Assembly: GCA_002429485.1 (NCBI GenBank)
Contig: DIZX01000015.1
Location: 86,044 to 150,043 of the forward strand
DNA from: Patescibacteria group bacterium UBA6017
GTDB lineage: Bacteria > Patescibacteriota > Saccharimonadia > UBA4664
Direction: 5' to 3'
Length of the DNA: 64,000 nucleotides
In this document: piece after piece, positions 1,982-57,129 of the stretch
How the letters are laid out: each line of letters opens with the position of its first letter
Numbering within the stretch: position 1 is the first letter of the stretch
The notes under the pieces: generated by a model
Database searches by the model: none
The model's input: the letters and a program-made list of their open reading frames with translations, nothing else
Told to the model about the DNA's origin: nothing
Program-made: the position numbers and the translations under genes

Positions 1982-3465
1982 TAGTAGGCACCTCGGCCAT
2001 TCAATATCGTCAGCACAGTTTTAAACAGGATCTTCATATCCAGCAACAGGCCCCAGTGCTCGACGTAGAAGATATCGAGCTTCACCCGGTCGTCGTAGCT
2101 TATATCGCTGCGCCCCGAAATCTGCCACAAACCGGTGATACCCGGCTTCAAGGCCAAGAAGATCGCGCCCCGCTCGCCGTAGTGCTCCAGCTCAGCGTTG
2201 ATAATCGGCCGCGGGCCGACCAAGCTCATGTCGCCCTTAAGTACGTTGAATAACTGCGGCAATTCATCAAGACTCGTCCGGCGCAAGAACCGTCCCAAAC
2301 GGCTCACCCGCGGGTCATTCTCCACCTTTTGTGCTACCTTAAACTCTTCGACCAAGTCGGGACGGCCCATGGCTTTAAACGTTTGCTCAGCCGACTTGTA
2401 CGGGCGGCCCGGCCCGTCGCAATACCGCCACAGCATCGTCCTAAACTTCAATACCGCCACCGAATTACCGCTGCGGCTCAATCGATGATGCCGAAACAGC
2501 ACCGGCCCCTTGGGGTCGCGCAGCTTCACCAGCAACGCCACCGCCAACAGCACCGGCGACAGCACGATTATTCCAAAGATTGCTCCAAGCAGATCAAATA
2601 TCCGCTTGGCAATCCGGCCCCAACCATCGAGCGGTGTGAGACGTATCTCTATCAACTGCACTCCCGCCAGAGTACCCAGCACCGAATTTGATGCGTACAA
2701 CCCGAATTGGTTTGGCACGAAGCGGTACCCAATCTGATGATTAGCCGCATAGTTCACCAAGTCCAAAATCTCCTCTGAATCCAAGGCCGAATCGGCCTGT
2801 ATCAGCTCGTCCAGACCGCCATCCGGTGCCACCGCAGCCAACGCCTCCTCGAGCGTTGCGAACACCGGGGTTCCCTTCATCCGCTTCGCCGCCCCCTTGG
2901 CCGTATCCACGCAGGCCAGCAGCCTGTATCCCGAGAACGTCTGCCTCAAATCGGGCGCCATCCGCTGAGCAATGTCGCCGCTACCGATAATAATCGTGTT
3001 GTGCACCCCAACCCCGAATTGAAACAACCAACGTTGTAATGAACGCACCAATATACGCGAAGTCAGTACAAAAATCAGGCCCAAGCCATAGGCATATATC
3101 GGCACCGCCTTCGACGGAAACAGCGAAACCGGGCGAAAGAAATCCAGCAAGATAGTTAACATTACTCCGCTCGATACCGCCACGAACACCTTCCCAATCT
3201 CGCCGAGCTTCCCGCGCAAATTGGACTGTGCATACAAGCCGGATAAAGCAAAAATAAGAATCCACAACGGCAACAGAATTGAGATCACCTGAATAAACTC
3301 AATCGCCGGTATCGGATGGGCCACCGGCTTACCCTCAAGCTTCACGCGGAGAATATAGCTCAGTACGAAAGCACTAAGCAGTGCCAGGAAATCTAGTGGC
3401 ACCAGTATTACGCTAAAAAATAATTCGCTTCGTTTGCGCATAATTTTGGTGACTCCATTGTACAC
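1981..3465 (-). CDS. Undecaprenyl-phosphate hexose-1-phosphate transferase (WbaP/exopolysaccharide-type polyprenyl glycosylphosphotransferase)
   Basis: 494 aa with N-terminal TM helices and a C-terminal bacterial sugar-transferase domain (LKGDMSLVGPRP...PGITGLWQISGRS). Its stop overlaps the GT4 start. Confidence 0.85.
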   Translation of the reverse strand: MYNGVTKIMRKRSELFFSVILVPLDFLALLSAFVLSYILRVKLEGKPVAHPIPAIEFIQVISILLPLWILIFALSGLYAQSNLRGKLGEIGKVFVAVSSGVMLTILLDFFRPVSLFPSKAVPIYAYGLGLIFVLTSRILVRSLQRWLFQFGVGVHNTIIIGSGDIAQRMAPDLRQTFSGYRLLACVDTAKGAAKRMKGTPVFATLEEALAAVAPDGGLDELIQADSALDSEEILDLVNYAANHQIGYRFVPNQFGLYASNSVLGTLAGVQLIEIRLTPLDGWGRIAKRIFDLLGAIFGIIVLSPVLLAVALLVKLRDPKGPVLFRHHRLSRSGNSVAVLKFRTMLWRYCDGPGRPYKSAEQTFKAMGRPDLVEEFKVAQKVENDPRVSRLGRFLRRTSLDELPQLFNVLKGDMSLVGPRPIINAELEHYGERGAIFLALKPGITGLWQISGRSDISYDDRVKLDIFYVEHWGLLLDMKILFKTVLTILNGRGAY

Positions 3466-3472
3466 CGCTACC

Positions 3473-4144
3473 TTAAGCTTCTGTAATCCCTATCTGACCC
3501 TTCAACCGCTGCCAATCCACGACATCCGCGAGCGATAGTCCGAGCCCCGTAAAATAAGCCGCAAGCTCGATTGGCGCAAGGGCGCCGACTTCTTCATCGG
3601 CCCTCATTATCGTTCGCATAAAATCATGCTCTTCGCCCGGCATCACCAGCCACTCCTCGACACCGCCCTCCGCGTAATAAGTGGGCGTTACGATACTATG
3701 CGGCTTCACGAATATTACGGCCTCCTCGACTGCTCTGGCGCCCAGCTCCAGGGCGTGCTGCCGAAATGCCGCCAGGGTTTGGCCTCCGTCGGCCAAATCA
3801 TCCACGCCCAATATCACTCGACCCTGGACCTGCTCCCGAACCAGCTGCATCGTGATCTCAGCCTCACCCGCCTCACCGATCCCGGTATATCGTCTTATCC
3901 GGCAAGGCACCACCCCGTGCACCACTCCGTAGCCCATCAGCACATCCAATACCATCCGCGCCGGCAGACCGCCGCCCATCAGTATCGGTACCACCACCAA
4001 ACTATCCGGCTGATCCTTATATCGCGCCAATATCTGCCCTGCAACAACCGTAGCCTTGTCTCTCAGTTCCTCATAAGACACCACCCGAAACCGGCTGGCG
4101 TGATGCTTAGCCAATTTATCGCCGCGCCCAAGGTGTGAGTTCAT
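3473..4144 (-). CDS. Type I phosphoribosyltransferase (HGPRT-like)
   Basis: 223 aa. PRPP-binding motif VILGVDDLADGGQTL; the N-terminal half resembles hypoxanthine/xanthine-guanine PRTases. Confidence 0.6.
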   Translation of the reverse strand: MNSHLGRGDKLAKHHASRFRVVSYEELRDKATVVAGQILARYKDQPDSLVVVPILMGGGLPARMVLDVLMGYGVVHGVVPCRIRRYTGIGEAGEAEITMQLVREQVQGRVILGVDDLADGGQTLAAFRQHALELGARAVEEAVIFVKPHSIVTPTYYAEGGVEEWLVMPGEEHDFMRTIMRADEEVGALAPIELAAYFTGLGLSLADVVDWQRLKGQIGITEA

Positions 4145-4190
4145 GGATTGATGATCGCCAATTTAGTTTTAGTGTAAATATAATTGCAGT

Positions 4191-4540
4191 GTCAGATCAG
4201 TAGTAAGCCGGATTCTGTCATGGATGATCATCTATCTTGGAGCTATGTTGCCATAGCCCTCGTGCGGCACGTACGCTCAAACGAGCGAGCAGCTCCCCTT
4301 GCGGGATGTTTGAGCAGCCTTGCAGCAGACGGGGTTTACCTCTCGCACCGGTCACCCGGATAGACTGTGCGCTCTTACCGCACTCGTTTCACCCTTACCT
4401 GTCTTACGACAGGCGGTATCGTTTCTGTGGCACTTTCCCTACGGTCGCCCGCGATTGCCGTTAGCAATCGTCCTGCTCTATGCTGTCCGGACTTTCCTCA
4501 CCGATGCTTTCACACCAGCGCGATCATCTCCTGATCTGAC
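4191..4540 (-). ncRNA. rnpB: RNase P RNA (bacterial type A)
   Basis: On the minus strand the 5' P1 strand gucagaucag pairs with the 3' cugaucugac. It contains GAGGAAAGUCCGGAC...CAUAGAGCA (P4/CR-I), GGGUGAAACGAGUGCGGUAAGAGCGCAC (CR-II/III) and ACAGAAUCCGGCUUAC near the 3' end (CR-V). Confidence 0.9.
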
Positions 4541-4609
4541 CCCCAGATTATGCCAGAATACAGCCCAAAGTTCAAACATAACAATTATTACGTTGTCGAA
4601 ACTACAACA

Positions 4610-8245: not shown

Positions 8246-9204
8246 GAGACTCCCTCCAGTTGCGCAGCTTCAAGTCGATCTCCACGCGCATCAATAGCAC
8301 TAATCGCGTAAGCACAGCCCAAAATCACTGCCGCCCCCGCTAGCGCCATCACAGAAGGTATTTCCCCGTACAGACAAAACCCGATCACAGTTGCGAATAC
8401 CCCTTCCAGCAGGAGTAAGTTGCCCACTACGTAGGCTTTTAGATGACCAAAAACATAATTTATCAGGAACAGTCCTACCACGTTCAGCACCGAGGACATG
8501 CCCAGCCCAATCCAACCGCTCATAGAAATATGTTGAGGTATCACAGGCTCATGCAGGGCCATAGAAACAATAAAAAGCGGGATCCAGGTGAGCAACAATA
8601 TTAACGTGGTGTTTTGGTAGTTCGAAAACGATTTTGGGTGGTAGCGCGACAGCATGTAGCCTATATCAAACCCCAACATGCCAATAATGGCGGCCGTTTC
8701 GCCCCAGCCAACCTGTAGCGAGTCTAGCCTCAGGCCCGTCAGCATAGCCAAACCCACCACCGAGATGACGATGAAGGGCAAGGCGGCCAGCCTCAGCTTC
8801 TCCCGAAACATTACCCAGCCCAAAATACCAAGAATCGGCAGCGACGATACAAACGACACCGTGCTCAAATCGGCGTTCAGAATCGCAATAGTAAAGAATC
8901 CTACCCCGATTGTATTCGCAAGAAATCCCCGTAGGCCGTACATAGCCCAATCTCGACCTCTTATCTGCCGCAGAAAATCAACACTAAAGCTGCGTCGAAA
9001 AACCACCAACGCGATCAATCCGGCAAGGAACATCCGCAAATACACCTGCTGCCAAGGAGCAAAACTGCCGTCCATCATTCGAACCCAGACGCCCATGAAA
9101 ACGAAGAGCAGCGCCAGCAACACTGTGGCCAGTACGGGCTTTATTTTGTTAGCGGTCGTTTTTGTCACTGTATATCCGTATATAATTTCAAGCCTCCGTG
9201 ACAT
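8242..9204 (-). CDS. EamA/DMT family transporter
   Basis: 320 aa with about 10 predicted TM helices and two EamA-like repeats. Overlaps dut by 4 nt. Confidence 0.65.
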
Positions 9205-9385
9205 CGTCGCAGCCTACCAACTTTTCCCTGCGTGAAGCAGGTGGGTGCCCTCAGTCACAAAGTCCACGGACTAGGACAATCTTGAGCTCCCGTTGGTAGT
9301 AGTACAGAGAAAAATCTATGAGCTGCTAACGTATGGCACAGAGACTCCTCTATTGTACGGGTCCTACCATCAAGAGCAAGCGGAT

Positions 9386-19832: not shown

Positions 19833-20079
19833 ATCTTCTCCTTTATATACAAAAAACGACGCACAATTGCTTGCGCGTCTGGACCCTTTTGGGGCGGTTC
19901 CACCAGACTTTCTCGGGCGAACCCAAGACTCTCATAGTTTCCGGTGAACGCCACCGGCAACGAGGCTCGCGGGTTGGTTGGGCCCGGTCAGCACCTTATT
20001 GAACTAGGCTGATTATCGCAAACTATACTGCTCTAGGCAATCCCAGCAAACGAGTAGCCTTTCTACTTCCCCAATAATG

Positions 20080-20775
20080 TTACTCGACGAAGGGCGGCCG
20101 CTCACCTTTAGCCAACTTGTCTGCAATTTCACGAGCTTCCTGAGGTGATTCAATCAACCCACTCTTTGGCCACTCGCTTTTATTTTGATTGGGCTCGCCT
20201 TGGTCAGGAACATCAGTCTCCTGCGAAGCCACCTCAGCAGCTATACTTTCTTGTGGCCCATTCATCGCGCTCAACTGTTTATCTTGTCGAATTGCGTCCA
20301 GCACCTGGCGAGACTGGTTTGCTCCTAGTTGAGCTACTTCAATACCGGCGGCCTTGCCCGGAGCTTCTGCCTCAATCTGCGCCTTAGCGGCCGCATCCGC
20401 CACGGCCAATCGGGCTATCCTAGCCAGTCTCGCCGACTCCGCACTCGATCCCGGAGTTATCACAGGTCCCGTACCTTCCAGCTGAGCCGGAGACTGAACG
20501 GCATTCACCTCGGCAGCTTCCTGCTCCCCACGAGCGACAATTCCCTTAGCTCGAGCTTCAACTCCGACATGGGTCGTTCCGCTTGATTCGATAGCCTGCG
20601 CCGGCTCAGGAGCATCAGGATCCTGCTCCGTACGAGCCTCCTCCGCTCGTCGGGCAAAAATATCTGCCATATCCTGCAGCGCGTTATCTTTCGGACTTAC
20701 GCGCTCTTTTGAGGCCTCAAAAAGATCTCCCTGCTCAAATTCCTGATCATTTCCGCCTGAACCCTGTTCGCCCAT
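20080..20775 (-). CDS. Hypothetical acidic, low-complexity protein (predicted disordered)
   Basis: 231 aa rich in E/A/Q/D/G with no recognisable domain. It lies upstream of thrS in the same orientation. Confidence 0.4.
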   Translation of the reverse strand: MGEQGSGGNDQEFEQGDLFEASKERVSPKDNALQDMADIFARRAEEARTEQDPDAPEPAQAIESSGTTHVGVEARAKGIVARGEQEAAEVNAVQSPAQLEGTGPVITPGSSAESARLARIARLAVADAAAKAQIEAEAPGKAAGIEVAQLGANQSRQVLDAIRQDKQLSAMNGPQESIAAEVASQETDVPDQGEPNQNKSEWPKSGLIESPQEAREIADKLAKGERPPFVE

Positions 20776-20782
20776 TGCTCGC

Positions 20783-20989
20783 CTATTCCTTCCCCGGAGG
20801 GTGCTCTTTCTCAGATGTATGCTCTACGCGCTCGGGGCGCTTCCAGCCGTTATCATCCTGATCTGGTGCATCATCTAACGCTTCGTACGGCTCGGCCTTA
20901 CTGCCCAATCCCGTCGGGCGCTTTGGAGCCCTTGCCCGCTCTAATGCTTCTTGAATTCGTTTGTTTTCGGCTTCGGCCATTTTTGGCAC
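20783..20989 (-). CDS. Hypothetical small charged protein
   Basis: 68 aa. Lies 8 nt upstream of the acidic protein gene. Confidence 0.3.
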   Translation of the reverse strand: MPKMAEAENKRIQEALERARAPKRPTGLGSKAEPYEALDDAPDQDDNGWKRPERVEHTSEKEHPPGKE

Positions 20990-21156
20990 CCCTAAGTTAT
21001 ATAACTATCATACCAAATCCCGGCTGGAATGAATCCCCCAGATAGACGCATCTTTACATATGACAGATTGATGTTATAGTTTAGCCAGCACCTTAAGTAG
21101 TGTAGTTACCCCCTGTTTTCCCCGCTTTTGTCCCAAGAACCCAGGAGGTTCCTTCG

Positions 21157-22887
21157 ATGTTCATGACCCCTCAGCACGAACCGAACCAGCCAGACCCGAC
21201 CGAGGAAACAGTTGACCCGGCAGAAGCCCTGCGTCAGCATGCCCTCCTCACCGAGGAAGTCGCCGCATTGCGCCGCCGACTCGCGGACTCACCCACCCGT
21301 TCGCGGGATCTCGAGAACCGAGTGCTGCAGCTGCAGACCTCGCTCTCAACGCTGTCAGCCCAGAACGAACGCGTCGTGAAGGCGCTCAGGGCGGCCCGCG
21401 AGCAGATCGTCACGCTCAAGAGTGAGGTCGACCGACTGGCTCAACCGCCATCGGCCTACGGCCTGATCGTCGAGACGTATGACGACGCCACTGTCGACGT
21501 CCTCACCAGCGGCCGCAAGATGCGCGTCGCGGTGTCACCCTCGATCGATCCGGGCGAGCTCAACCAAGGCCGCGAGGTCATGCTCAACGAGGCGCTCAAT
21601 GTGGTCGCAGTCTGCGGCTACGAGCGCATCGGCGAGATCGTGACGGTCAAGGAGGTGCTGGACGACGACATCGACAAGGATCTGAAAGACCGAGTTCTTG
21701 TAGTCGCCCACGCCGACGAGGAGCGTGTCTGCCGCAGAGCCGGAAGCCTTGTTGGCGAACCCATCCGAGCCGGCGACGCCCTGTTGCTCGACACCCGTTC
21801 CGGTTTCGTGTACGAGCGCATCCTCAGAGCTGAAATCACCGACCTGGTCCTCGAAGAGGTCCCGGACGTCGGCTACGAGGACATCGGCGGACTAACCGGT
21901 CAGATCGAGGCTATCCGCGATGCCGTGGAGATGCCCTATCTGCACCCGGACCTGTTCCTGGAGCACAAGCTCAAGCCGCCGAAGGGCATCCTGCTCTACG
22001 GCCCTCCCGGCTGCGGCAAGACGATGATCGCCAAGGCCGTCGCGGCATCTCTGGCCAGAAAGGTTGCGGCTAAAGAAGGTAAGCCCTTGGGCAACGCCTT
22101 CTTCCTCAACATCAAGGGCCCCGAGCTGCTCAACAAGTACGTCGGTGAGACCGAGCGGCACATCCGCCTGATCTTCCAGCGTGCCCGCGAGAAGGCCTCC
22201 GACGGTACCCCCGTGGTTGTCTTTTTCGATGAGATGGATGCCCTGTTCCGCACCCGCGGCTCAGGCGTCTCCTCCGACATCGAGACCACCATCGTGCCAC
22301 AGTTGCTCTCCGAGATCGACGGCGTCGAGCGGCTCGAAAACGTCATCGTCATCGGGGCCTCCAACCGCGAAGACATGATCGACCCCGCAATCCTGCGGCC
22401 GGGCCGGCTTGACGTCAAGATCAAGATCGAACGTCCCGACGCTGAAAGCGCCCGGGACATCTTCAGCAAGTACCTCACGGCGGACCTTCCGCTACACGAG
22501 TACGACCTGGCTGAACACGGCGGTTCCGCTCAGCGGACCATCGAGGACATGATCCAGACCGCTGTCGAACGGATGTACTCCGAATCCGACTTCAACCGGT
22601 TCCTCGAGGTCACCTACGCCGGCGGCGACAAGGAGGTTCTCTACTTCAAGGACTTCCTCACTACCTCTCAGAAGGGCATCCGAGTCGAGCATCTGCTCAC
22701 CTCCTGCCGTGACGAGTTCAAGGAGAATGAGGATCTCCCCAACACCACCAACCCCGACGACTGGGCTCGCATCTCCGGCAAGAAGGGCGAGCGCATCACC
22801 TACATCCGCACTCTCGTGACCGGCAAGGACGGTACCGAACCCGGTCGCTCCATCGAGGCTGTGGCCAACACCGGCCAGTACCTCTAG
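21157..22887 (+). CDS. arc: Proteasome-associated AAA+ ATPase ARC/Mpa (actinobacterial type, C-terminal GQYL)
   Basis: 576 aa. N-terminal coiled coil, OB/inter domains, Walker [10 protein letters not shown], Walker B VVFFDEMD, second region of homology, and a C-terminus ...ANTGQYL. AGGAGG RBS 10 nt upstream. GC and GC3 are markedly higher than neighbouring genes. Confidence 0.88.
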
Positions 22888-22901
22888 GCCACAAGCTCCA
22901 C

Positions 22902-22949
22902 GGCCGTCTGCTGTCCACGATGCGTGGACAGCAGACGGCCTATCTTTTT
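22902..22949 (+). terminator. Rho-independent terminator after arc
   Basis: ggccgtctgctgtccacg-atgc-gtggacagcagacggcc: 17-bp perfect stem followed by tatcttttt. Confidence 0.85.
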
Positions 22950-22950
22950 G

Positions 22951-22980
22951 CCAAAACAAAAACCGCCCCAAAGGGCGGCT
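22951..22980 (-). terminator. Rho-independent terminator downstream of tRNA-Val(GAC)
   Basis: The minus strand reads gccgccctttggggcggtttttgttttgg. It is convergent with the arc terminator. Confidence 0.7.
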
Positions 22981-22992
22981 AAGATAATTACT

Positions 22993-23068
22993 GGTGGGTC
23001 CTAGAGGATTCGAACCTCTGACCTCCTCAACGTCAATGAGGCGCTCTAGCCAACTGAGCTAAGGACCC
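22993..23068 (-). tRNA. tRNA-Val (anticodon GAC)
   Basis: Acceptor gggtcct/aggaccc, anticodon loop uuGACgu, T-arm GGTTCGAATCC, CCA encoded. Confidence 0.85.
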
Positions 23069-23205
23069 GGGCCGTTACAAGTGGATAATATAGCTTAAAT
23101 CGACCCTACAAGCAATACATACAATGAAATTAGCACTCCCATATGCCATAATCCATTCCTACGGTGTAATACTGTCGCTCCCCTTTAGTCCCCCTACCCG
23201 AGAAG

Positions 23206-23823
23206 GTGATGGAAGTGTCCGCACGTCCGATTCGAAGCATCGAACAACTCGCCAAGCTAGTTACTCAGCTCGGCCTTCGTCTCCAGCGCAAAGCCGACCG
23301 CACCGCGCGGTCCAAGGCCCGAATCACGAAGCTCAAGAAGCAGCTCGCCGATGAACGCGCGCGGCTCATCGCTTTAAATGCCAAAGACGACGCGCTAAAC
23401 ATGCGCGACAGCGCCAAGATCTGGGTATTCGACGAGGGACACCCAGAACTACGCCACGGCCAAAACGTCGAACTCGGCTCCGGCACAGGTTCACATCGAT
23501 CTCAACGCGAGGGAGCCCTGCAGTTCGAGGTCGATGAGCAAACCACAATTGATGAAATCAGGTCACGCTTCTCTGAGGAATTCGACTCGGTTGTCGAAAC
23601 AAAGTACTTCATTCGCAAGAATCCTCTCAAGCGCGAATTCAGGTGGCTGCTCGACAGATTAACTACAGCGTCAGCCCCGTCACAAGAAACCTTCACCATC
23701 TACCCCCTGGTGACTGAAGAATTCTTCAGAGCATCCGTCCAGCGGTTTCGCAGTGCGGCCATCACCCTCGAGCTCATCCCTGACCCCGATGCAGACGGCT
23801 CGACCGAGAACGCTACACCCTGA
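23206..23823 (+). CDS. Hypothetical protein (N-terminal basic coiled coil)
   Basis: 205 aa with a K/R-rich predicted helix (LQRKADRTARSKARITKLKKQLADERARL) and an unknown C-terminal domain. It lies between the two tRNA-Val genes. Confidence 0.45.
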   Translation: MMEVSARPIRSIEQLAKLVTQLGLRLQRKADRTARSKARITKLKKQLADERARLIALNAKDDALNMRDSAKIWVFDEGHPELRHGQNVELGSGTGSHRSQREGALQFEVDEQTTIDEIRSRFSEEFDSVVETKYFIRKNPLKREFRWLLDRLTTASAPSQETFTIYPLVTEEFFRASVQRFRSAAITLELIPDPDADGSTENATP

Positions 23824-23914
23824 CCCAACCCCATCCGGCGGAGGCGAATACCGCCCCCGCCGGATGCCCAACCTTTCCGCATTTATCAAAATAAGCTACA
23901 ATTTCGTGGTCTAA

Positions 23915-23991
<77 letters not shown>

Positions 23992-24101
23992 TAGAAAACG
24001 CCCCTTTGTGGGGCTTTTTCTTATCCAACTTATGCTTGCACCATTACCCCCACAAAACATACACTAATTGTACTATCTGCCAACATAAGAGGTACAGGAG
24101 C

Positions 24102-25229
24102 ATGCTGAGTAGGCAAATCGCCGACAAAATTTGCGCCAAAGTGAGTGCTCTGGTAAATCAGAACCTCCGTCTTACCGATGCCGATGGCAAAGCCCTCTCG
24201 CAAACAGTGGCTCTAAAGCCAGAAAATCTCAAAATTAACACCATTCCCTGGGCCATTCCGTTCTACTACGGCGGCAACATTGTCGGCTACATTGTGCTCG
24301 ATGCCGAAATGCCGAACCACGAAGAGATTGCCCCGCTCATCCGCTCCATCGCCGAGCTCGTCATGCACCAGTCACTGGTATTGGAACAAATCCCCCACCA
24401 AGATGAGCGCCTCGATAAATTTATCTACGACCTGCTCAACCAACCCCAGCCCGAATGGTCGCTGTTGGCCGCCGAAGCCCGCTTATTCGATATTGAGCTC
24501 GATCGGCCTCGAATCGCCATTGTCATCCAGATCGACGACCCCACCCTCACCGCCAGATATCAAGACCCCACGGGGGACCGCGAAATCCGCCTCACCCGCT
24601 ATAAGTTCGGCATCAACCGCGCACTCAATTCGTTCTACACCTCCAGCCGCGAAAACGTGGTGAGCTACCTTGGCGGAACCTCCTTTTGTATCCTCAAAGA
24701 TCTCTTGGGTTCGGGCGAGCGCGAGCATGAACTAGATACCGCCCTCGAAGGCTTCAAAAAGAGCCTGGGCGTGATCTACAGCATCCTCAAGAGTGAGCTC
24801 AAGCCGCCCACTACCGTCGGTGTCGGCAATTACCATCCCGGGCTCGAAGGACTGCGCCAGAGCTACCACGAAGCCACCTCCGCCATCGAGCTGGGCGCCC
24901 AGACCTGGGACGTCGACCGCATCTACCACATCGATGATTTCGGCGTGGTCGCCCCACTGCTATCAGGTGTTGATGAAAACAATATCTACTTCTCCCGCGA
25001 GCTCCTCGACCGCGTCGGTGAAAATCACGAAATTATTCAGACCCTCGAGGCCTTCTTTAGCTTCGATATGTCGCTCACCCGCACCGCCGAAACCCTCAAG
25101 ATCCACCGCAACACCCTGGTTTATCGCCTCGACCGCATCACCGAAACCCTCGGCCTAGACCCGCGGGTATTCGACGACGCCATTCAAATTAAACTAGCTA
25201 TTTTATATAGCCGATTTGTGGAGCGTTAA
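24102..25229 (+). CDS. CdaR/PucR family transcriptional regulator (paralog 1)
   Basis: C-terminal PucR-type HTH (AETLKIHRNTLVYRLDRITETLGLD). I placed the start at MLSRQIADKI, which has an AGGAG RBS and aligns with the paralog's N-terminus; the ORF-track start at 23982 would overlap the tRNA. Confidence 0.75.
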   Translation: MLSRQIADKICAKVSALVNQNLRLTDADGKALSQTVALKPENLKINTIPWAIPFYYGGNIVGYIVLDAEMPNHEEIAPLIRSIAELVMHQSLVLEQIPHQDERLDKFIYDLLNQPQPEWSLLAAEARLFDIELDRPRIAIVIQIDDPTLTARYQDPTGDREIRLTRYKFGINRALNSFYTSSRENVVSYLGGTSFCILKDLLGSGEREHELDTALEGFKKSLGVIYSILKSELKPPTTVGVGNYHPGLEGLRQSYHEATSAIELGAQTWDVDRIYHIDDFGVVAPLLSGVDENNIYFSRELLDRVGENHEIIQTLEAFFSFDMSLTRTAETLKIHRNTLVYRLDRITETLGLDPRVFDDAIQIKLAILYSRFVER

Positions 25230-25231
25230 GC

Positions 25232-26413
25232 ATGCAGCTCAACTCCGCACTCGCCAGACAAATCGCCGATAAGGCCAACCAAGTGCTCAAGCGCGACCTC
25301 TTGGTGGCCGATCTTTCCGGGCAAATCCTGGCCGGTATCCCCACTCAAAGCTTCGTTTCCGAAGCCTTATCGGCGGCCCAAACCGGACGCTCTACCACCT
25401 CGGATTTCAACGACCGCCAGACCAAATGGTGGCCGTTTGTCTACGACGAGCGCACCGTGGCAGTATTTGGGCTCCCTCTTGATACCGGCCCGATCACCCA
25501 GGAAGCTATCACCCTCCTGCAGGGCCTCGCCGAAGTTATCGTTTATCAGCACTTCCTGCTCGACAAAATTCAGTCGGCCGAACGTGTCCGTGCCGACTTT
25601 CTGCGCCAACTCCTCACCGCTCCCAGTATCGTACCAGCGGACATTCATCATCAGGCCGACATTCTTCAGCTCAATCTGCGCGTTGCCCAGGTTGCCATCC
25701 TTATCCATCTCGACGGATTTGAAACCTCGGTCCGCACCAAATTTGCTCAGCTTTCATCCGAAGAACAGCAATTACAAATCGACTCCTCCGCAGAAGAACT
25801 TAACAGCAGTATTCGTGATGGCTTCAAGAACCTCCAGGAAAACCTTGTGGCCTACCTCGGCGACAACCAGTTTGTTCTCCTCAAGGGCCTCACCGGCGAG
25901 TCGCTCACTACCCTCAACACTATCAGGCAGATCAACGAATATGCCAGAACCCTACAGAGCGTTACTACCAATCTCGCCCTGGAACAGCCCATCACTATCG
26001 GTGTCGGGCAGTACTACCCCGATCTCGCGGGTCTGCGCAAAAGCTACCAAGATGCCAAGCTGGCACTCGAAGTCGGCGCCAAGGTCTGGGGTAGCAGCCG
26101 GATCTACCATATTAAACAAGTTGGGATGTTCATCACCCTGGCCAGCACCAGTCAGGAGCGCAAGGCCGAACTGGCCCACCAAATCCTCTCCCCCTTGCTG
26201 CGCGACGAGCAATTATTCAAAACTGTTCAAACCTTCCTTGCCTCGGGCCTCAACCTCACTGACGCCGCCGGTAAGCTCCACATTCACCGCAACACCCTTA
26301 TTTATCGGCTCGATAAGACAAAAAAACTCATAAACTTAGACCCGCGGCACTTCGATGACGCCCTCCAGATCAAACTCGGGCTAATGTTTTATCAGGATCA
26401 AACCCCCGCATAA
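25232..26413 (+). CDS. CdaR/PucR family transcriptional regulator (paralog 2)
   Basis: 393 aa with the same architecture (ARQIADKANQVLKRDL...; HTH LHIHRNTLIYRLDKTKKLINLD). Starts 3 nt after paralog 1. Confidence 0.75.
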   Translation: MQLNSALARQIADKANQVLKRDLLVADLSGQILAGIPTQSFVSEALSAAQTGRSTTSDFNDRQTKWWPFVYDERTVAVFGLPLDTGPITQEAITLLQGLAEVIVYQHFLLDKIQSAERVRADFLRQLLTAPSIVPADIHHQADILQLNLRVAQVAILIHLDGFETSVRTKFAQLSSEEQQLQIDSSAEELNSSIRDGFKNLQENLVAYLGDNQFVLLKGLTGESLTTLNTIRQINEYARTLQSVTTNLALEQPITIGVGQYYPDLAGLRKSYQDAKLALEVGAKVWGSSRIYHIKQVGMFITLASTSQERKAELAHQILSPLLRDEQLFKTVQTFLASGLNLTDAAGKLHIHRNTLIYRLDKTKKLINLDPRHFDDALQIKLGLMFYQDQTPA

Positions 26414-45689: not shown

Positions 45690-46406
45690 CTAGGCGGTGG
45701 TGACGACCGTGTTGCGCTCGACGATGGCGACCTCGCCGGCGTTGGACATCAGGCCGGGAGCCTTCGTGCCCTTGAGGTAGGTCTCCGTGGAGATGAGCGC
45801 CGTGACGTGCCAGGCGGTCAGGACCTCGTTGAACTTCGTCAGAGCGAAGGCGAAGGCCTGCCGGAACGGACGCCGGTTGGCCTCCACCGAAGCCCAGAAC
45901 AGCCCCTGAAGACCCTCGTGATCACGCATCTCGGCCGTGAGACCCGACAGCACCTCGAGGGAATCCTGGAGCGACTCGATCATCTCGAGGTAGCGCCTGA
46001 AGACCGCCGTGTAGCTGCCCTCGCGGAGAACCTCGATGATGTCGCGGGCCGCCTTGGCATCCGGCACCAGACCGGCAGCCACGAGCTCGGCGTAGAACGC
46101 GTCGAGATCGAGCGATGTCGTGGGTTCGAACGGTTCGTAGTCCCCCACGGACATCACGCCGATGAGCTGCTTGACGTAGCTCGAGCAGACCCCGAGCTGA
46201 CCGCTTGCGGCCTCGAAGTTGGTCACAGCCAGACCGAGATGACCTCGTCCTGCGCCGTAGCTCAGTGCTTCGTCCGTCATGATCGCATCCTCGACAACAG
46301 CGTTGCCGGCGAAGAACGACGCGAGTGCCTGTGACAGCGCTCGCTCGGCCGGAACCGTGAACTTCTTGCTGGCGTTGCTCGTGGGGTTGTGATCGATACC
46401 ACCCAT
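45690..46406 (-). CDS. Hypothetical protein (compositionally atypical, GC3-rich)
   Basis: 238 aa with no recognisable domain. Codon usage is strongly G/C-ending, unlike its neighbours. Confidence 0.5.
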   Translation of the reverse strand: MGGIDHNPTSNASKKFTVPAERALSQALASFFAGNAVVEDAIMTDEALSYGAGRGHLGLAVTNFEAASGQLGVCSSYVKQLIGVMSVGDYEPFEPTTSLDLDAFYAELVAAGLVPDAKAARDIIEVLREGSYTAVFRRYLEMIESLQDSLEVLSGLTAEMRDHEGLQGLFWASVEANRRPFRQAFAFALTKFNEVLTAWHVTALISTETYLKGTKAPGLMSNAGEVAIVERNTVVTTA

Positions 46407-53445: not shown

Positions 53446-54696
53446 ATGCTTACTCGCATCACCCGAACCGGCAAACCTCAGGGTTTGCTGATTATTCCTG
53501 CCATCATACTCATACTTTCTACCCTAGTGAGCGATCTGCCGTCTGCCAGTGCCATGATCGCGATTGCTCCCGGGCCGGTGCTCACCCTCGACGCCGCACA
53601 ACCGCCCGTTATTACTCAGCGCGCCATCACCGCCACTACCCCACCAGGCTGGGAAAGTGGGTATTTCGCCAACTCTTTCGAGTATGGCTACGCCTCATCC
53701 AGCGCCTCCACCGCCCCAGACAGTACAAGCGTGAATGTGATCTCGATTGATCCCGCCGCGACGCCGCTCGCCAGCCCCCTGCACGTCCTTATCGATATCA
53801 GTGAGCAAGATCCTAACGTCACGCTCTACCTCATGGTCCGGGCCAACCTCCAGAGCGGAATTCCATGCGACTGGTCACACCCCCTGCTCATCAATGACCC
53901 TTCGATGTACGTAGCGCCGCCAGATCCTACACCGACCCCCACGCCAACCCCTACTCCTACGCCCACACCTAGCGCCACGCCCTCCCCCGCGCCAGCACCA
54001 ACACCCATACCTCCAGCTGTCGTGTGCCCCCGGCTTCAATTCGTGGGCGTACGCGGCTCCAGCGAAACTAAATATGATAGCGGAGGCTACGGGAGCACTG
54101 TCGCCAATATTAAGGATATTATCGAAAAGAACGTTCCTGGCACCAAAAGTACGCCGATCGACTACCCAGCCATTCCCGTTGGCTATGGTGGACCCGACTA
54201 TCTCAGCCTGTATGAAAAGAGCATGGCCAAAGGCCGAGACGCTCTGGATGCTTTTCTCACTAAATTTATTGGCGATTGCCCTCACACCTACGTAATTCTT
54301 GCAGGCTATAGCCAAGGCGCCCAAGTAGCTGGCGACGAGTTCGCCTACCTGACTACCGCCGAAAAGGGCCATATTGCAGCGCTCATACTCATCGGCGATC
54401 CCCGCTTCAACCCCAACCAACCCTCGGTAGATAATGGCAACTACGATAAAAAGCTTTCTGGCATCTACCAGTTCGTGGTTCCCCAAATGCGCATTATCCC
54501 CGATATCTGGGTACCCAACGTAAAAAGCTACTGCGCCAAAGGCGACCCTATATGCAACTTCACCGGTTCAAATCTGCCAAGCTGCCGCCCAGGCTCGAAG
54601 AACTGCCAGCACATTCTATATGCCGATAAAGGGTGGACAAAAATTGCCGCTCAATGGGCTATAAGACACTGGAGAACACTTCCTTCATTACCATAA
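53446..54696 (+). CDS. Secreted cutinase-like serine hydrolase with Pro-Thr linker
   Basis: 416 aa. Signal/TM segment, N-terminal domain, (PT)n/PSATPSPAPAPTP linker, and a C-terminal cutinase fold (CPRLQFVGVRGSSE, GYSQGAQV nucleophile elbow, conserved Cys pairs, Asp/His near the C-terminus). Confidence 0.7.
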   Translation: MLTRITRTGKPQGLLIIPAIILILSTLVSDLPSASAMIAIAPGPVLTLDAAQPPVITQRAITATTPPGWESGYFANSFEYGYASSSASTAPDSTSVNVISIDPAATPLASPLHVLIDISEQDPNVTLYLMVRANLQSGIPCDWSHPLLINDPSMYVAPPDPTPTPTPTPTPTPTPSATPSPAPAPTPIPPAVVCPRLQFVGVRGSSETKYDSGGYGSTVANIKDIIEKNVPGTKSTPIDYPAIPVGYGGPDYLSLYEKSMAKGRDALDAFLTKFIGDCPHTYVILAGYSQGAQVAGDEFAYLTTAEKGHIAALILIGDPRFNPNQPSVDNGNYDKKLSGIYQFVVPQMRIIPDIWVPNVKSYCAKGDPICNFTGSNLPSCRPGSKNCQHILYADKGWTKIAAQWAIRHWRTLPSLP

Positions 54697-56205: not shown

Positions 56206-57129
56206 ATGGCCGAATTACACCTATCTGAGCTCGTCACCGACTTCCTGGAGCACCTGGAGATCGAACAGAACCGCTCACCCAAGACCATCAGCAACTACGA
56301 TCACTACCTCCAGCGACTGGTCGAATTCGCAGGCGACTGCGACATCGCCAAGCTAGACGCCGAAATGGTCCGCCAATGGCGCCTACACCTCAACCGTACC
56401 AAAGACGTTTCCGGCAACGAACTCACCAAAACCACCCAGAACTATCACCTCATCGCCCTGCGCAGCTTTCTCAAGTACCTCGCCAAGCGAGATATCACCG
56501 CCCTCGACAGCGCCAAAATCGAACTCGCCAAAACCGTCCGCCCTCAAGTGACCTTCCTGGAAACGGAGGAGGTGCAGCGCCTGCTCGAGGCCGTCGACAC
56601 CTCCAACCCCATCGGCCTGCGCGACCGCGCCATCATCGAGCTGCTATTCTCCGGCGGCCTGCGCGTATCCGAGCTCGTCAACCTGAATGTCACCCATATC
56701 AACCTCGACCGGCGCGAATTTATGGTGCGCGGCAAGGGCCAAAAAGACCGCCCCATCTTCATCTCACCCACCGCCGCCGACTGGATGGACCTTTACCTCA
56801 AAAGCCGCCACGACGACGGCCAACCCCTCTTCATCCACTACTCCGGCTCCCAAGACTCTGCTGAGGGCGGCATGTACACCCGCCTCACCGTTCGCAGCGT
56901 TCAGCGACTCGTGAAGCGCTACGCCACCGCCGCCGGCATCACCAAGGACGTCACCCCACACACCCTGCGCCACAGCTTTGCAACCGACCTGCTCATCAAC
57001 GGCGCCGACATCCGCAGCGTCCAAGGTCTGCTCGGCCACGCCAACATTGCCACCACCCAGATCTACACCCACATCACCGACCCACAGCTCAAAGCCGTGC
57101 ACGAGAAGTTCCACGGCCGCAGGGCCTAA
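56206..57129 (+). CDS. xerD: Tyrosine recombinase XerD/XerC
   Basis: 307 aa with an N-terminal SAM-like core-binding domain and catalytic R..HxxR..Y (HTLRHSFATDLLINGADIRSVQGLLGHANIATTQIYTH). Confidence 0.85.
   Translation: MAELHLSELVTDFLEHLEIEQNRSPKTISNYDHYLQRLVEFAGDCDIAKLDAEMVRQWRLHLNRTKDVSGNELTKTTQNYHLIALRSFLKYLAKRDITALDSAKIELAKTVRPQVTFLETEEVQRLLEAVDTSNPIGLRDRAIIELLFSGGLRVSELVNLNVTHINLDRREFMVRGKGQKDRPIFISPTAADWMDLYLKSRHDDGQPLFIHYSGSQDSAEGGMYTRLTVRSVQRLVKRYATAAGITKDVTPHTLRHSFATDLLINGADIRSVQGLLGHANIATTQIYTHITDPQLKAVHEKFHGRRA

Follow-up and report, generated by a model that had tools for sequence, protein, structure and literature searches.

A gene for ARC/Mpa, the proteasomal AAA+ ATPase of the actinobacterial Pup-proteasome system, was found in a 64,000-nucleotide stretch of DNA from Patescibacteria group bacterium UBA6017 (GenBank assembly GCA_002429485.1, contig DIZX01000015.1, positions 86,044 to 150,043 of the forward strand), which was analysed as a whole and is called the window below. 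We consider it fairly probable (about 0.65) that a Saccharibacterium captured this gene from an actinobacterium and kept it under selection, that the protein acts without its usual partners or on host components, and that it has been weakened in the population sampled here. Judged by its sequence, the protein is a new member of the ARC/Mpa family that occurs in an unexpected organism, lies outside a Pup-proteasome locus and lacks one defining structural element.

The ARC/Mpa protein

Profile and structure searches assigned the ATPase to its family. It scored 746.1 bits against TIGR03689 ("proteasome ATPase"), for which the curated equivalog cutoff is 504.75, and Pfam placed tandem OB domains (Prot_ATP_ID_OB_N, PF17758, residues 101-160, E 4e-24; Prot_ATP_ID_OB_C, PF16450, residues 161-222, E 4e-20) ahead of an AAA domain at residues 278-425. 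The best solved structure was that of Mycobacterium tuberculosis Mpa (7px9), which matched residues 31-576, through the terminal ...NTGQYL, with an E value of 2.6e-212. Walker A (GPPGCGKT), Walker B (FFDEMD), the pore loop (KYVGE) and RPGRLD were all found, and both Walker motifs, pore loop 1, sensor 1 and the Arg fingers occupied alignment columns that are invariant across the relatives. Residues 31-97 aligned with the coiled coil of Mpa, and AlphaFold2 (AF2) predicted helices at residues 21-43 and 46-94. By this comparison the N-terminal coiled coil, the Pup-binding element in Mpa, appears to be kept, Pup binding being putative here. At the other end of the protein, residues 497-576 aligned to Mpa's C-terminal beta-grasp domain (residues 531-609) and finish in GQYL. 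In Mpa, GQYL is the 20S-docking motif (PMC8223512, PMC9599533), and the beta-grasp/GQYL module touches the 20S core (PMC9599533).

Identification with other AAA families was rejected. The next-best family was archaeal PAN, with 236 bits against a cutoff of 500; the PAN models together gave 229-236 bits and the CDC48 model 211 bits, where the family cutoffs are 500-803, and the FtsH model was also far under its cutoff. Since the double-OB domain, the beta-grasp domain and GQYL are specific to ARC, PAN, CDC48/VAT and Cpa were excluded. Anti-phage defence ATPases (PADLOC IetA, TRIP13) reached at most 91 bits, confined to residues 224-467 as a generic AAA match, and NCBIfam IteA gave 88.7 bits against a cutoff of 510, so that a defence role was dropped. 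The initial annotation of this DNA, made from the letters alone, had proposed an ARC/Mpa ATPase ending in ...NTGQYL and had named a placement in a non-ARC AAA family as a result that would overturn it; the searches returned ARC. Its description of a full Mpa architecture holds for the coiled coil, the OB domains, the AAA module and GQYL but not for the lid subdomain, which is 21 residues short.

Donor, recipient and insertion site

The window's threonyl-tRNA synthetase (ThrRS) shares 77-80% identity with proteins of Candidatus Saccharimonadales/Saccharimonadia and 75% with a Patescibacteria protein, and its neighbourhood of MurT/GatD, MiaA, NrdR, L25 and guanylate kinase genes is common to the window and its saccharibacterial relatives. 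On these comparisons the genome is read as one of Candidatus Saccharimonadia (TM7, candidate phyla radiation [CPR]) and not as actinobacterial. The nearest ARC proteins, in turn, are 589-593 residues long and 84% identical to the window protein over 99% of its length, with 84-88% identity across the donor clade. The two nearest (L089 and L091) sit in canonical actinobacterial TrmI-ARC-Dop-Pup-PrcB-PrcA loci, in which Pup has 68 residues and ends in GGQ and, in L089, PafA lies further on; these donor-like contigs have a GC content of 66-67%. Named relatives at 77-81% identity were Oryzihumus, Segeticoccus, Phycicoccus, Knoellia and Pedococcus. In DNA, the window gene and the nearest actinobacterial copy were 81.6% identical, and blastn homology (L089) was confined to positions 21143, where the Shine-Dalgarno (SD) sequence begins, to 22891, shortly after the stop codon. 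The phylogenies, which were distance- and parsimony-based only, nested the window ARC inside an actinobacterial clade by both neighbour joining (NJ) and parsimony. Together, these comparisons support a transfer from actinobacterium to epibiont, with a relative of Intrasporangiaceae and Dermatophilaceae among the Actinomycetota as the probable source of the gene. The European Nucleotide Archive (ENA) accessions of the donor-like contigs adjoin those of several saccharibacterial contigs (ERZ272486xx), which suggests that the two co-occur in one sample series. Cultured Saccharibacteria live on Actinobacteria, and transferred genes have been used to guess their hosts (PMC11659515); other genes are known to have entered Saccharibacteria by lateral transfer (PMC8764695, PMC8406219).

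The empty site was found in the closest sister Saccharibacteria (L172 and L174; ThrRS 93% identical to that of the window). Both are collinear with the window on either side and lack ARC, and blastn showed that the sequences up to 21017 and from 22957 onward are contiguous there. The intact empty site indicates that the window copy was inserted after the split from these sisters. A 4-nucleotide duplication, CAAA, flanks the insertion (21014-21017 and 22957-22960). The terminator-like hairpin inside it had no blastn match in the actinobacterial or sister saccharibacterial loci compared, and an actinobacterial origin of the 125 nucleotides upstream of the SD sequence was rejected, as their MAFFT similarity to the 3' end of trmI was within the shuffle range. 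The insertion consists of one gene and holds no integrase, the nearest XerC/D-like gene being 33 kb off, and the repeat search revealed no tRNA-derived repeats at its borders, only the CAAA duplication. With neither attachment (att) repeats nor an integrase, a tRNA-targeted integrative island was rejected. An identical ARC protein was found on a 380,560-bp Joint Genome Institute (JGI) contig, a Logan contig, ENA contigs and an NCBI metagenome-assembled genome (MAG).

Composition, selection and partner genes

The G+C content at third codon positions (GC3) of ARC was 0.816, compared with a mean of 0.639 (standard deviation 0.076) for the 59 other open reading frames (ORFs) of the window, which gives z = +2.3 and rank 3 of 60. 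Donor-like ARC genes had values of 0.866-0.898, and more distant, Intrasporangiaceae-like genes 0.95-0.98. Third positions of ARC were also shifted to the C excess that is typical of plus-strand genes in the window. A composition between that of donor and recipient fits a partly ameliorated gene. Two other ORFs of the window are equally rich: one at 45690-46406 on the minus strand (GC3 0.837), which encodes 238 residues without a family match and overlaps a 222-residue ORF on the other strand, and a XerC/D-like tyrosine recombinase at 56206-57129 on the plus strand (GC3 0.818), which scored under both the XerC and the XerD equivalog cutoffs.

A three-taxon decomposition by the Nei-Gojobori method gave 0.056 nonsynonymous (dN) and 0.50 synonymous (dS) substitutions per site for the window branch, a dN/dS of 0.11; the ratio was 0.24 on the branch of L085, another saccharibacterial ARC described below, and 0.07-0.08 on actinobacterial branches. 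A ratio of 0.11 indicates that ARC was maintained as a functioning coding sequence during most of its saccharibacterial time. Novel residues on the window branch were rarest in the beta-grasp/GQYL region (3 of 79, versus 7-11% elsewhere; 4 of 52 in the coiled coil, relative to the donor clade) and most frequent in the OB domains and the N-terminal tail.

No partner gene was detected. The 64-kb window holds no Pup-sized ORF ending in GGQ or GGE, and when Dop, Pup, PrcB, PrcA and PafA of a donor-like locus served as tblastn queries, neither the window nor the sister loci gave a match (best E 0.67). ARC thus lies outside a Pup-proteasome locus in the window and the sister loci, whereas L089 and L091 hold the partners within 10 kb. 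In the literature searched, we came upon no account of Pup-system genes, ARC included, in CPR bacteria and no paper linking Patescibacteria with pupylation. With no Pup ligase, Pup or 20S genes in view, ARC might be a partner-less unfoldase or remodeller, or might act on host-derived Pup-tagged material.

These results bear on several proposals of the initial annotation. The Saccharimonadia genome, the relatives in actinobacterial loci (nearest neighbours in the homology search at 84% amino acid identity) and the empty sister site uphold its proposal that ARC was acquired horizontally from an actinobacterial donor or host. The orphan status it assigned to ARC holds for the 64-kb window. Its G/C-ending third positions are real in that ARC is a GC3 outlier, but not a unique one. 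The two tRNA-Val genes it had noticed beside ARC were located (Table 1); its idea of a tRNA as insertion site agrees only loosely with the data, in that the insertion ends 35 nt from tRNA-Val(GAC) within the variable hotspot described below, but neither an integrase nor tRNA-derived att repeats accompany it.

Loss of the lid helix and polymorphism of codon 366

The window ARC has lost 21 residues, KDFNSGAMIQNIVDRAKKMAI, from the helical (lid) subdomain of its AAA module. The missing residues correspond to about 511-531 of Mpa and form the helix right after the beta-hairpin, which we take to be the lid helix bearing the SGA (sensor-2-position) motif of classic AAA proteins. This segment is present in all 124 actinobacterial relatives compared, as well as in the saccharibacterial ARCs L085 and L176, and at least 17 of its columns are conserved in at least 98% of the 124. 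The window protein does not have a complete lid subdomain including the helix after the beta-hairpin (FNSGAMIQNIVDRAKK...). In all five relatives compared by DNA (L085, L089, L091, L176 and L004), two copies of the 11-nucleotide repeat TCAAGGACTTC, 63 nucleotides apart, enclose the 21 codons, and the window keeps one copy. The 63-nucleotide loss is a slippage deletion between the repeats, and it is in frame because the repeats are 63 nucleotides apart. This deletion bears on whether the protein still works as an unfoldase.

AF2 was run on the window ARC and on an undeleted relative (P0003) with the same 46-sequence alignment. In P0003, the lid and beta-hairpin region (residues 421-530) had a predicted local distance difference test score (pLDDT) of 70-91, the helix at 496-517 had about 84-87, and the region beyond residue 530 had 33-63. 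In the window ARC, pLDDT was 27-49 from residue 471 onward and the hairpin was not predicted. As confidence for the window protein was low (mean pLDDT 59), the model is usable only as a contrast to the undeleted control; as such, it is a weak indication that the C-terminal region of the window ARC may be impaired.

Two further differences were seen. Neither the nearest actinobacterial relatives (A1 set, P0036) nor L085 has the 7-residue insertion that the window protein carries in an OB2 loop, and the columns of this insertion hold a residue in fewer than 80% of the sequences of a 126-sequence alignment. Codon 366 has three alleles, namely ACC (Thr) in the window, CCC (Pro) in two assemblies (L083 and L084) and TCC (Ser) in a third (L177), although the assemblies compared are 99.88-99.99% identical, with 1-7 differing positions in 10-22 kb. 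Thr366 is invariant in 45 of 45 actinobacterial relatives aligned (A2) and equals T379 of M. tuberculosis Mpa, in the loop that bears pore loop 2 and five residues ahead of V384-S386, which are the contact residues of Mpa pore loop 2 (PMC8755798). Two independent changes at nucleotide 22252 suggest selection or a hotspot. The ARC motor is probably weakened or altered in this population, in which the lid helix is lost and Thr, Pro and Ser segregate beside pore loop 2.

Other saccharibacterial ARC genes and the hotspot

Two related Saccharibacteria also encode ARC. In L085 (ThrRS 88% identical), a 594-residue ARC directly adjoins thrS on the other side of a conserved 65-residue ORF, at the place that a 231-295-residue ORF takes in the window and L172. 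In L176 (ThrRS 78%), a 565-residue ARC (2882-4579 of that locus) has the reverse orientation and follows tRNA-Val(CAC); the 5-kb insert that holds it also carries an aminotransferase gene and small helix-turn-helix (HTH) genes. ARC therefore occupies three different sites of one hotspot (19833-24100 in the window), which extends between thrS and two PucR/CdaR-like genes around the tRNA-Val pair and whose cargo differs by genome; in L086 (ThrRS 82%), for example, the cargo comprises MazG-like and HTH/AbiEi-like genes. Among the matches listed (at most 62% identity), none of 80 more distant saccharibacterial loci had ARC within 10 kb of thrS. Other cargo included a Rce1-like gene (L172, L173) and a Mu Gam-like gene (L085, L172-L174).

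The L176 protein shares 68-74% identity with every ARC compared, including that of the window, and its best matches are Nonomuraea- and Streptosporangium-type loci. It has a GC3 of 0.89, a complete lid helix, GQYL and a short, divergent N-terminal region. On these grounds it is a separate capture from a different donor. The OB2 loop that is extended in the window protein also has an insertion in L176.

For the window and L085, a single capture was favoured. Their genes share the 5' motif CCAGATA(G/T)ACGC(T)ATCTT(T/G)ACA, which scored 27 against 14.4 ± 2.3 for shuffled sequences (reached by 0 of 500), is absent from the actinobacterial loci and overlaps the promoter-like site; the 22 bases before the ATG are identical. 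The two proteins share six derived residues, of which each actinobacterial sequence matches at most three, and a sister topology is one parsimony step shorter; in the NJ tree the two were sisters in 9 of 100 bootstraps. The motif, the derived residues and parsimony favour one capture for this ARC type, after which it probably moved within or between Saccharibacteria. The idea that the window and L085 gained ARC independently was abandoned on the same three grounds, the protein signal being weak either way.

Features of the window

Features of the insertion and its flanks are collected in Table 1.

Table 1. Coordinates of ARC and associated features in the window
Feature	Position	Strand	Remarks
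Native 65-residue ORF, left flank	20783..20989	-	Small unannotated family beside thrS in sisters
Inserted cassette, 1,939 bp (promoter-like region, SD, ARC coding sequence, terminator)	21018..22956	+	Empty site in sisters
Promoter-like site TTTACA-16-TG-TATAGT	21053..21080	+	Consensus scan; ~77 nt upstream of start codon
Shine-Dalgarno AGGAGG	21143..21148	+	8 nt before ATG; sequence reading
ARC/Mpa proteasomal AAA+ ATPase gene	21157..22887	+	576-residue ORF; profile and structure matches
ARC domain order	Residues ~21-97 (coiled coil), 101-160 (OB1), 161-222 (OB2), 278-425 (AAA)		Then beta-hairpin, truncated lid, beta-grasp, GQYL
7-residue OB2 insertion DIDKDLK, ~D171-K177, in loop	21667..21687	+	Alignments
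Codon 366, tri-allelic at nt 22252	22252..22254	+	Assembly comparison
Deletion junction, one copy of TTC AAG GAC TTC	22645..22656	+	Codon-level comparison, alignments
C-terminal GQYL codons and stop	22873..22887	+	Predicted 20S-docking motif
Intrinsic-terminator-like hairpin	22902..22950	+	Perfect 18-bp stem, 3-nt loop, T-rich tail; inside insertion
tRNA-Val(GAC)	22992..23068	-	Native flank; 3' end 35 nt from insertion's right end
tRNA-Val(CAC)	23915..23991	+	Second tRNA-Val

The 65-residue ORF on the left flank was considered as a Pup-like partner and rejected, as it matches nothing in Pfam and does not end in GGQ or GGE; moreover, its family adjoins thrS in sisters both with and without ARC and is therefore not an ARC partner. 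The family has 33 database members, and the contexts examined were saccharibacterial contigs. The ORF pairs with an acidic, low-complexity 231-residue ORF upstream of thrS (20080-20989 for the pair, minus strand), and this larger ORF varies from 231 to 295 residues and is missing in L085. On the right flank, every sister locus keeps the tandem PucR/CdaR-like regulators (GGDEF_2 and HTH_30; 23982-25229 and 25232-26413, plus strand). The first regulator's longest ORF extends into tRNA-Val(CAC), and the gene call of the source contig starts later, giving 375 residues. L177 (GCA_002413465.1, DHWZ01000047.1, 12822-15714) matches the window up to 23977, inside tRNA-Val(CAC), and beyond it carries the glycine-cleavage genes GCV_H and GCV_T in place of the CdaR-like genes, which may be either a MAG mis-join or a rearrangement.

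Seven tRNA genes are spread over the window, which also carries a class A RNase P RNA (4188-4539, minus strand; 267 bits) and a 6S RNA (9189-9347, minus strand; 53 bits, barely over the gathering score). A 416-residue protein encoded at 53446-54696 on the plus strand has a cutinase/carbohydrate-esterase-5 domain (PF01083, E 4e-24), a weak PE-PPE match and similarity to acetyl xylan esterase 1qoz (E 4e-10), and adjoins a low-GC stretch at 54-56 kb (GC 0.45-0.48). This protein could be an enzyme that attacks cell envelopes, or a further import. Most window genes lie on the minus strand; minus-strand genes are G-rich and plus-strand genes C-rich at third positions. GC skew showed a C excess on the plus strand throughout, from -0.06 to -0.34 per kb whatever the gene strand, and values over ARC (-0.07 and -0.12) were weaker than in most of the window. 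This strand bias is as expected for one replichore of a very strongly biased genome.

Discussion

The course of events that we favour would begin with a Saccharibacterium of soil or permafrost (TM7, a lineage of obligate epibionts), which took ARC from an Actinomycetota relative of Intrasporangiaceae and Dermatophilaceae. The gene sits in a 1,939-bp single-gene insertion by tRNA-Val(GAC), with its own promoter-like site, SD sequence and terminator; it evolved under purifying selection once transferred, and its composition is intermediate between donor and recipient. Its product presumably forms a hexameric AAA+ ring that grips substrates by its coiled coils and threads them through the pore loops. 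A slippage deletion has removed the lid helix, and Thr, Pro and Ser segregate beside pore loop 2, so that the motor is probably weakened or altered in this population. As to what the protein does, a partner-less unfoldase in the epibiont seems to us plausible at somewhat less than even odds, and action on host-derived components improbable.

Several points weigh against this explanation. The dN/dS spans the whole branch and says nothing on the time since the deletion, and, the deletion being in frame by repeat spacing, the open frame is no evidence of selection. The absence of partner genes covers 64 kb and a few related loci. Mean pLDDT was low for both AF2 models (59 for the window protein, 65 for P0003), and AF2 gives no stability. 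Finally, that the donor was also the host is a conjecture drawn from the habits of cultured Saccharibacteria (PMC11659515) and from the neighbouring ERZ272486xx accessions.

The same deletion can be taken further, as one of the steps to a pseudogene. ARC, once useful or neutral, would now be undergoing inactivation, with T366P/S as further steps. A near-invariant 21-residue segment that 124 actinobacterial relatives, L085 and L176 have kept was lost here by a simple slippage event; an otherwise invariant codon has three non-synonymous alleles among 99.9% identical genomes; AF2 confidence in the C-terminal region collapses relative to the undeleted control; and the closest sisters do without ARC. 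However, the gene retains 576 codons without a stop or frameshift, its promoter-like site, SD sequence and terminator are intact, and its branch dN/dS is 0.11. The deletion allele is present in all five assemblies (two from JGI and one each from Logan, ENA and NCBI), and two changes at one nucleotide fit selection or a hotspot better than random decay. We regard ongoing inactivation as unlikely, though well worth keeping in mind. A different reading of the same changes makes them functional: ARC would meet Pup-tagged proteins, 20S or ARC subunits of the host as a processor, poison subunit or competitor, the lid deletion and the changes by pore loop 2 being dominant-negative and host ARC having been captured at least twice. 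This would accord with the 84-88% identity to donor-clade ARCs kept under purifying selection, with the fact that on the window branch the beta-grasp/GQYL region, which contacts 20S in Mpa (PMC9599533), has changed least (3 of 79 residues novel), with the retained coiled coil, with ARC in three related epibiont lineages, one of them a separate capture from another donor, and with the lack of own Pup or 20S genes in view. It is hard to reconcile with the fact that no secretion signal or delivery system is linked to ARC, that protein exchange between Saccharibacteria and host is not known, that L085 and L176 keep the lid helix, so that the deletion is no general feature, and that the coiled coil is the most diverged structured part of L085 ARC (25% novel residues); the conservation could moreover reflect a short time since transfer. 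We consider such a host-directed role a long shot.

Two further accounts were weighed. ARC might be native and belong to a complete Pup-proteasome system encoded elsewhere in the genome, for the window covers 64 kb of a contig that measures at least 380 kb, and ARC sometimes lies apart from the other Pup-proteasome genes. Yet a 1,939-bp presence/absence difference separates the window from the closest sister genomes, ARC is patchy among sisters and missing from the 80 distant thrS loci within the limits given above, the window ARC nests in an actinobacterial clade and is a GC3 outlier, and no paper linking Patescibacteria with pupylation was found; a native gene is very improbable. An actinobacterial fragment might instead have been joined into a saccharibacterial contig during assembly or binning. 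Donor-like contigs have neighbouring ERZ272486xx accessions, suggesting the same sample series, and the MAG contig L177 departs from the window further right, at tRNA-Val(CAC). Nevertheless, the junctions are identical in the five independent assemblies, the flanks of the coding sequence hold a non-actinobacterial promoter and terminator, and ARC differs too much from the nearest actinobacterial copy (82% DNA identity) to come from a contaminating read set. The shared junctions and the DNA identity argue against a chimera, to which we give almost no credence. We therefore retain a captured, selected and since weakened ARC as the best explanation.

If so, one part of the Pup-proteasome system has been retained alone under purifying selection in a parasite genome of about 1 Mb. 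ARC at three sites of one hotspot, from at least two captures from Actinomycetota, suggests a use without partners or with partners supplied by the host. For soil Saccharibacteria, the donor-like ARC predicts as host a relative of Intrasporangiaceae and Dermatophilaceae with about 67% GC, and such an organism was recovered, apparently from the same sample series. The lid-less allele and the three variants beside pore loop 2 may provide a natural experiment on which parts an AAA+ motor can do without and yet be retained. Should the protein act in the host, this would be a case in which a bacterium that lives on other bacteria mimics, at the molecular level, a component of its host's proteolysis; should a full Pup system lie elsewhere in the genome, or the gene be dead, the case would be one of ordinary lateral transfer.

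With PAN, CDC48/VAT and Cpa, the window ARC shares the classic AAA clade module. Its resemblance to M. tuberculosis Mpa and actinobacterial ARC (7px9, 5kwa) extends to the domain order, Walker A and B, pore loop 1, the Arg fingers and GQYL; unlike them, it is encoded in a Saccharibacterium with no neighbouring trmI, dop, pup, prcBA or pafA, and it differs from Mpa by the absence of the 21-residue lid helix, the OB2 insertion and the polymorphic T379 position. The proteasome-less Corynebacterium glutamicum, in which pupylation and ARC act without 20S, for example on ferritin, provides a precedent for an ARC unfoldase without a proteasome core (PMC8223512); C. glutamicum, however, keeps Pup, PafA and Dop in its locus, whereas the window ARC is a lone import in another phylum. 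The arginine deiminase system, gained laterally by mammal-associated Saccharibacteria (PMC8764695), likewise exemplifies a reduced-genome epibiont that acquires a discrete function by transfer, but that operon is a self-sufficient metabolic unit, and ARC is one part of a multi-part proteolysis system.

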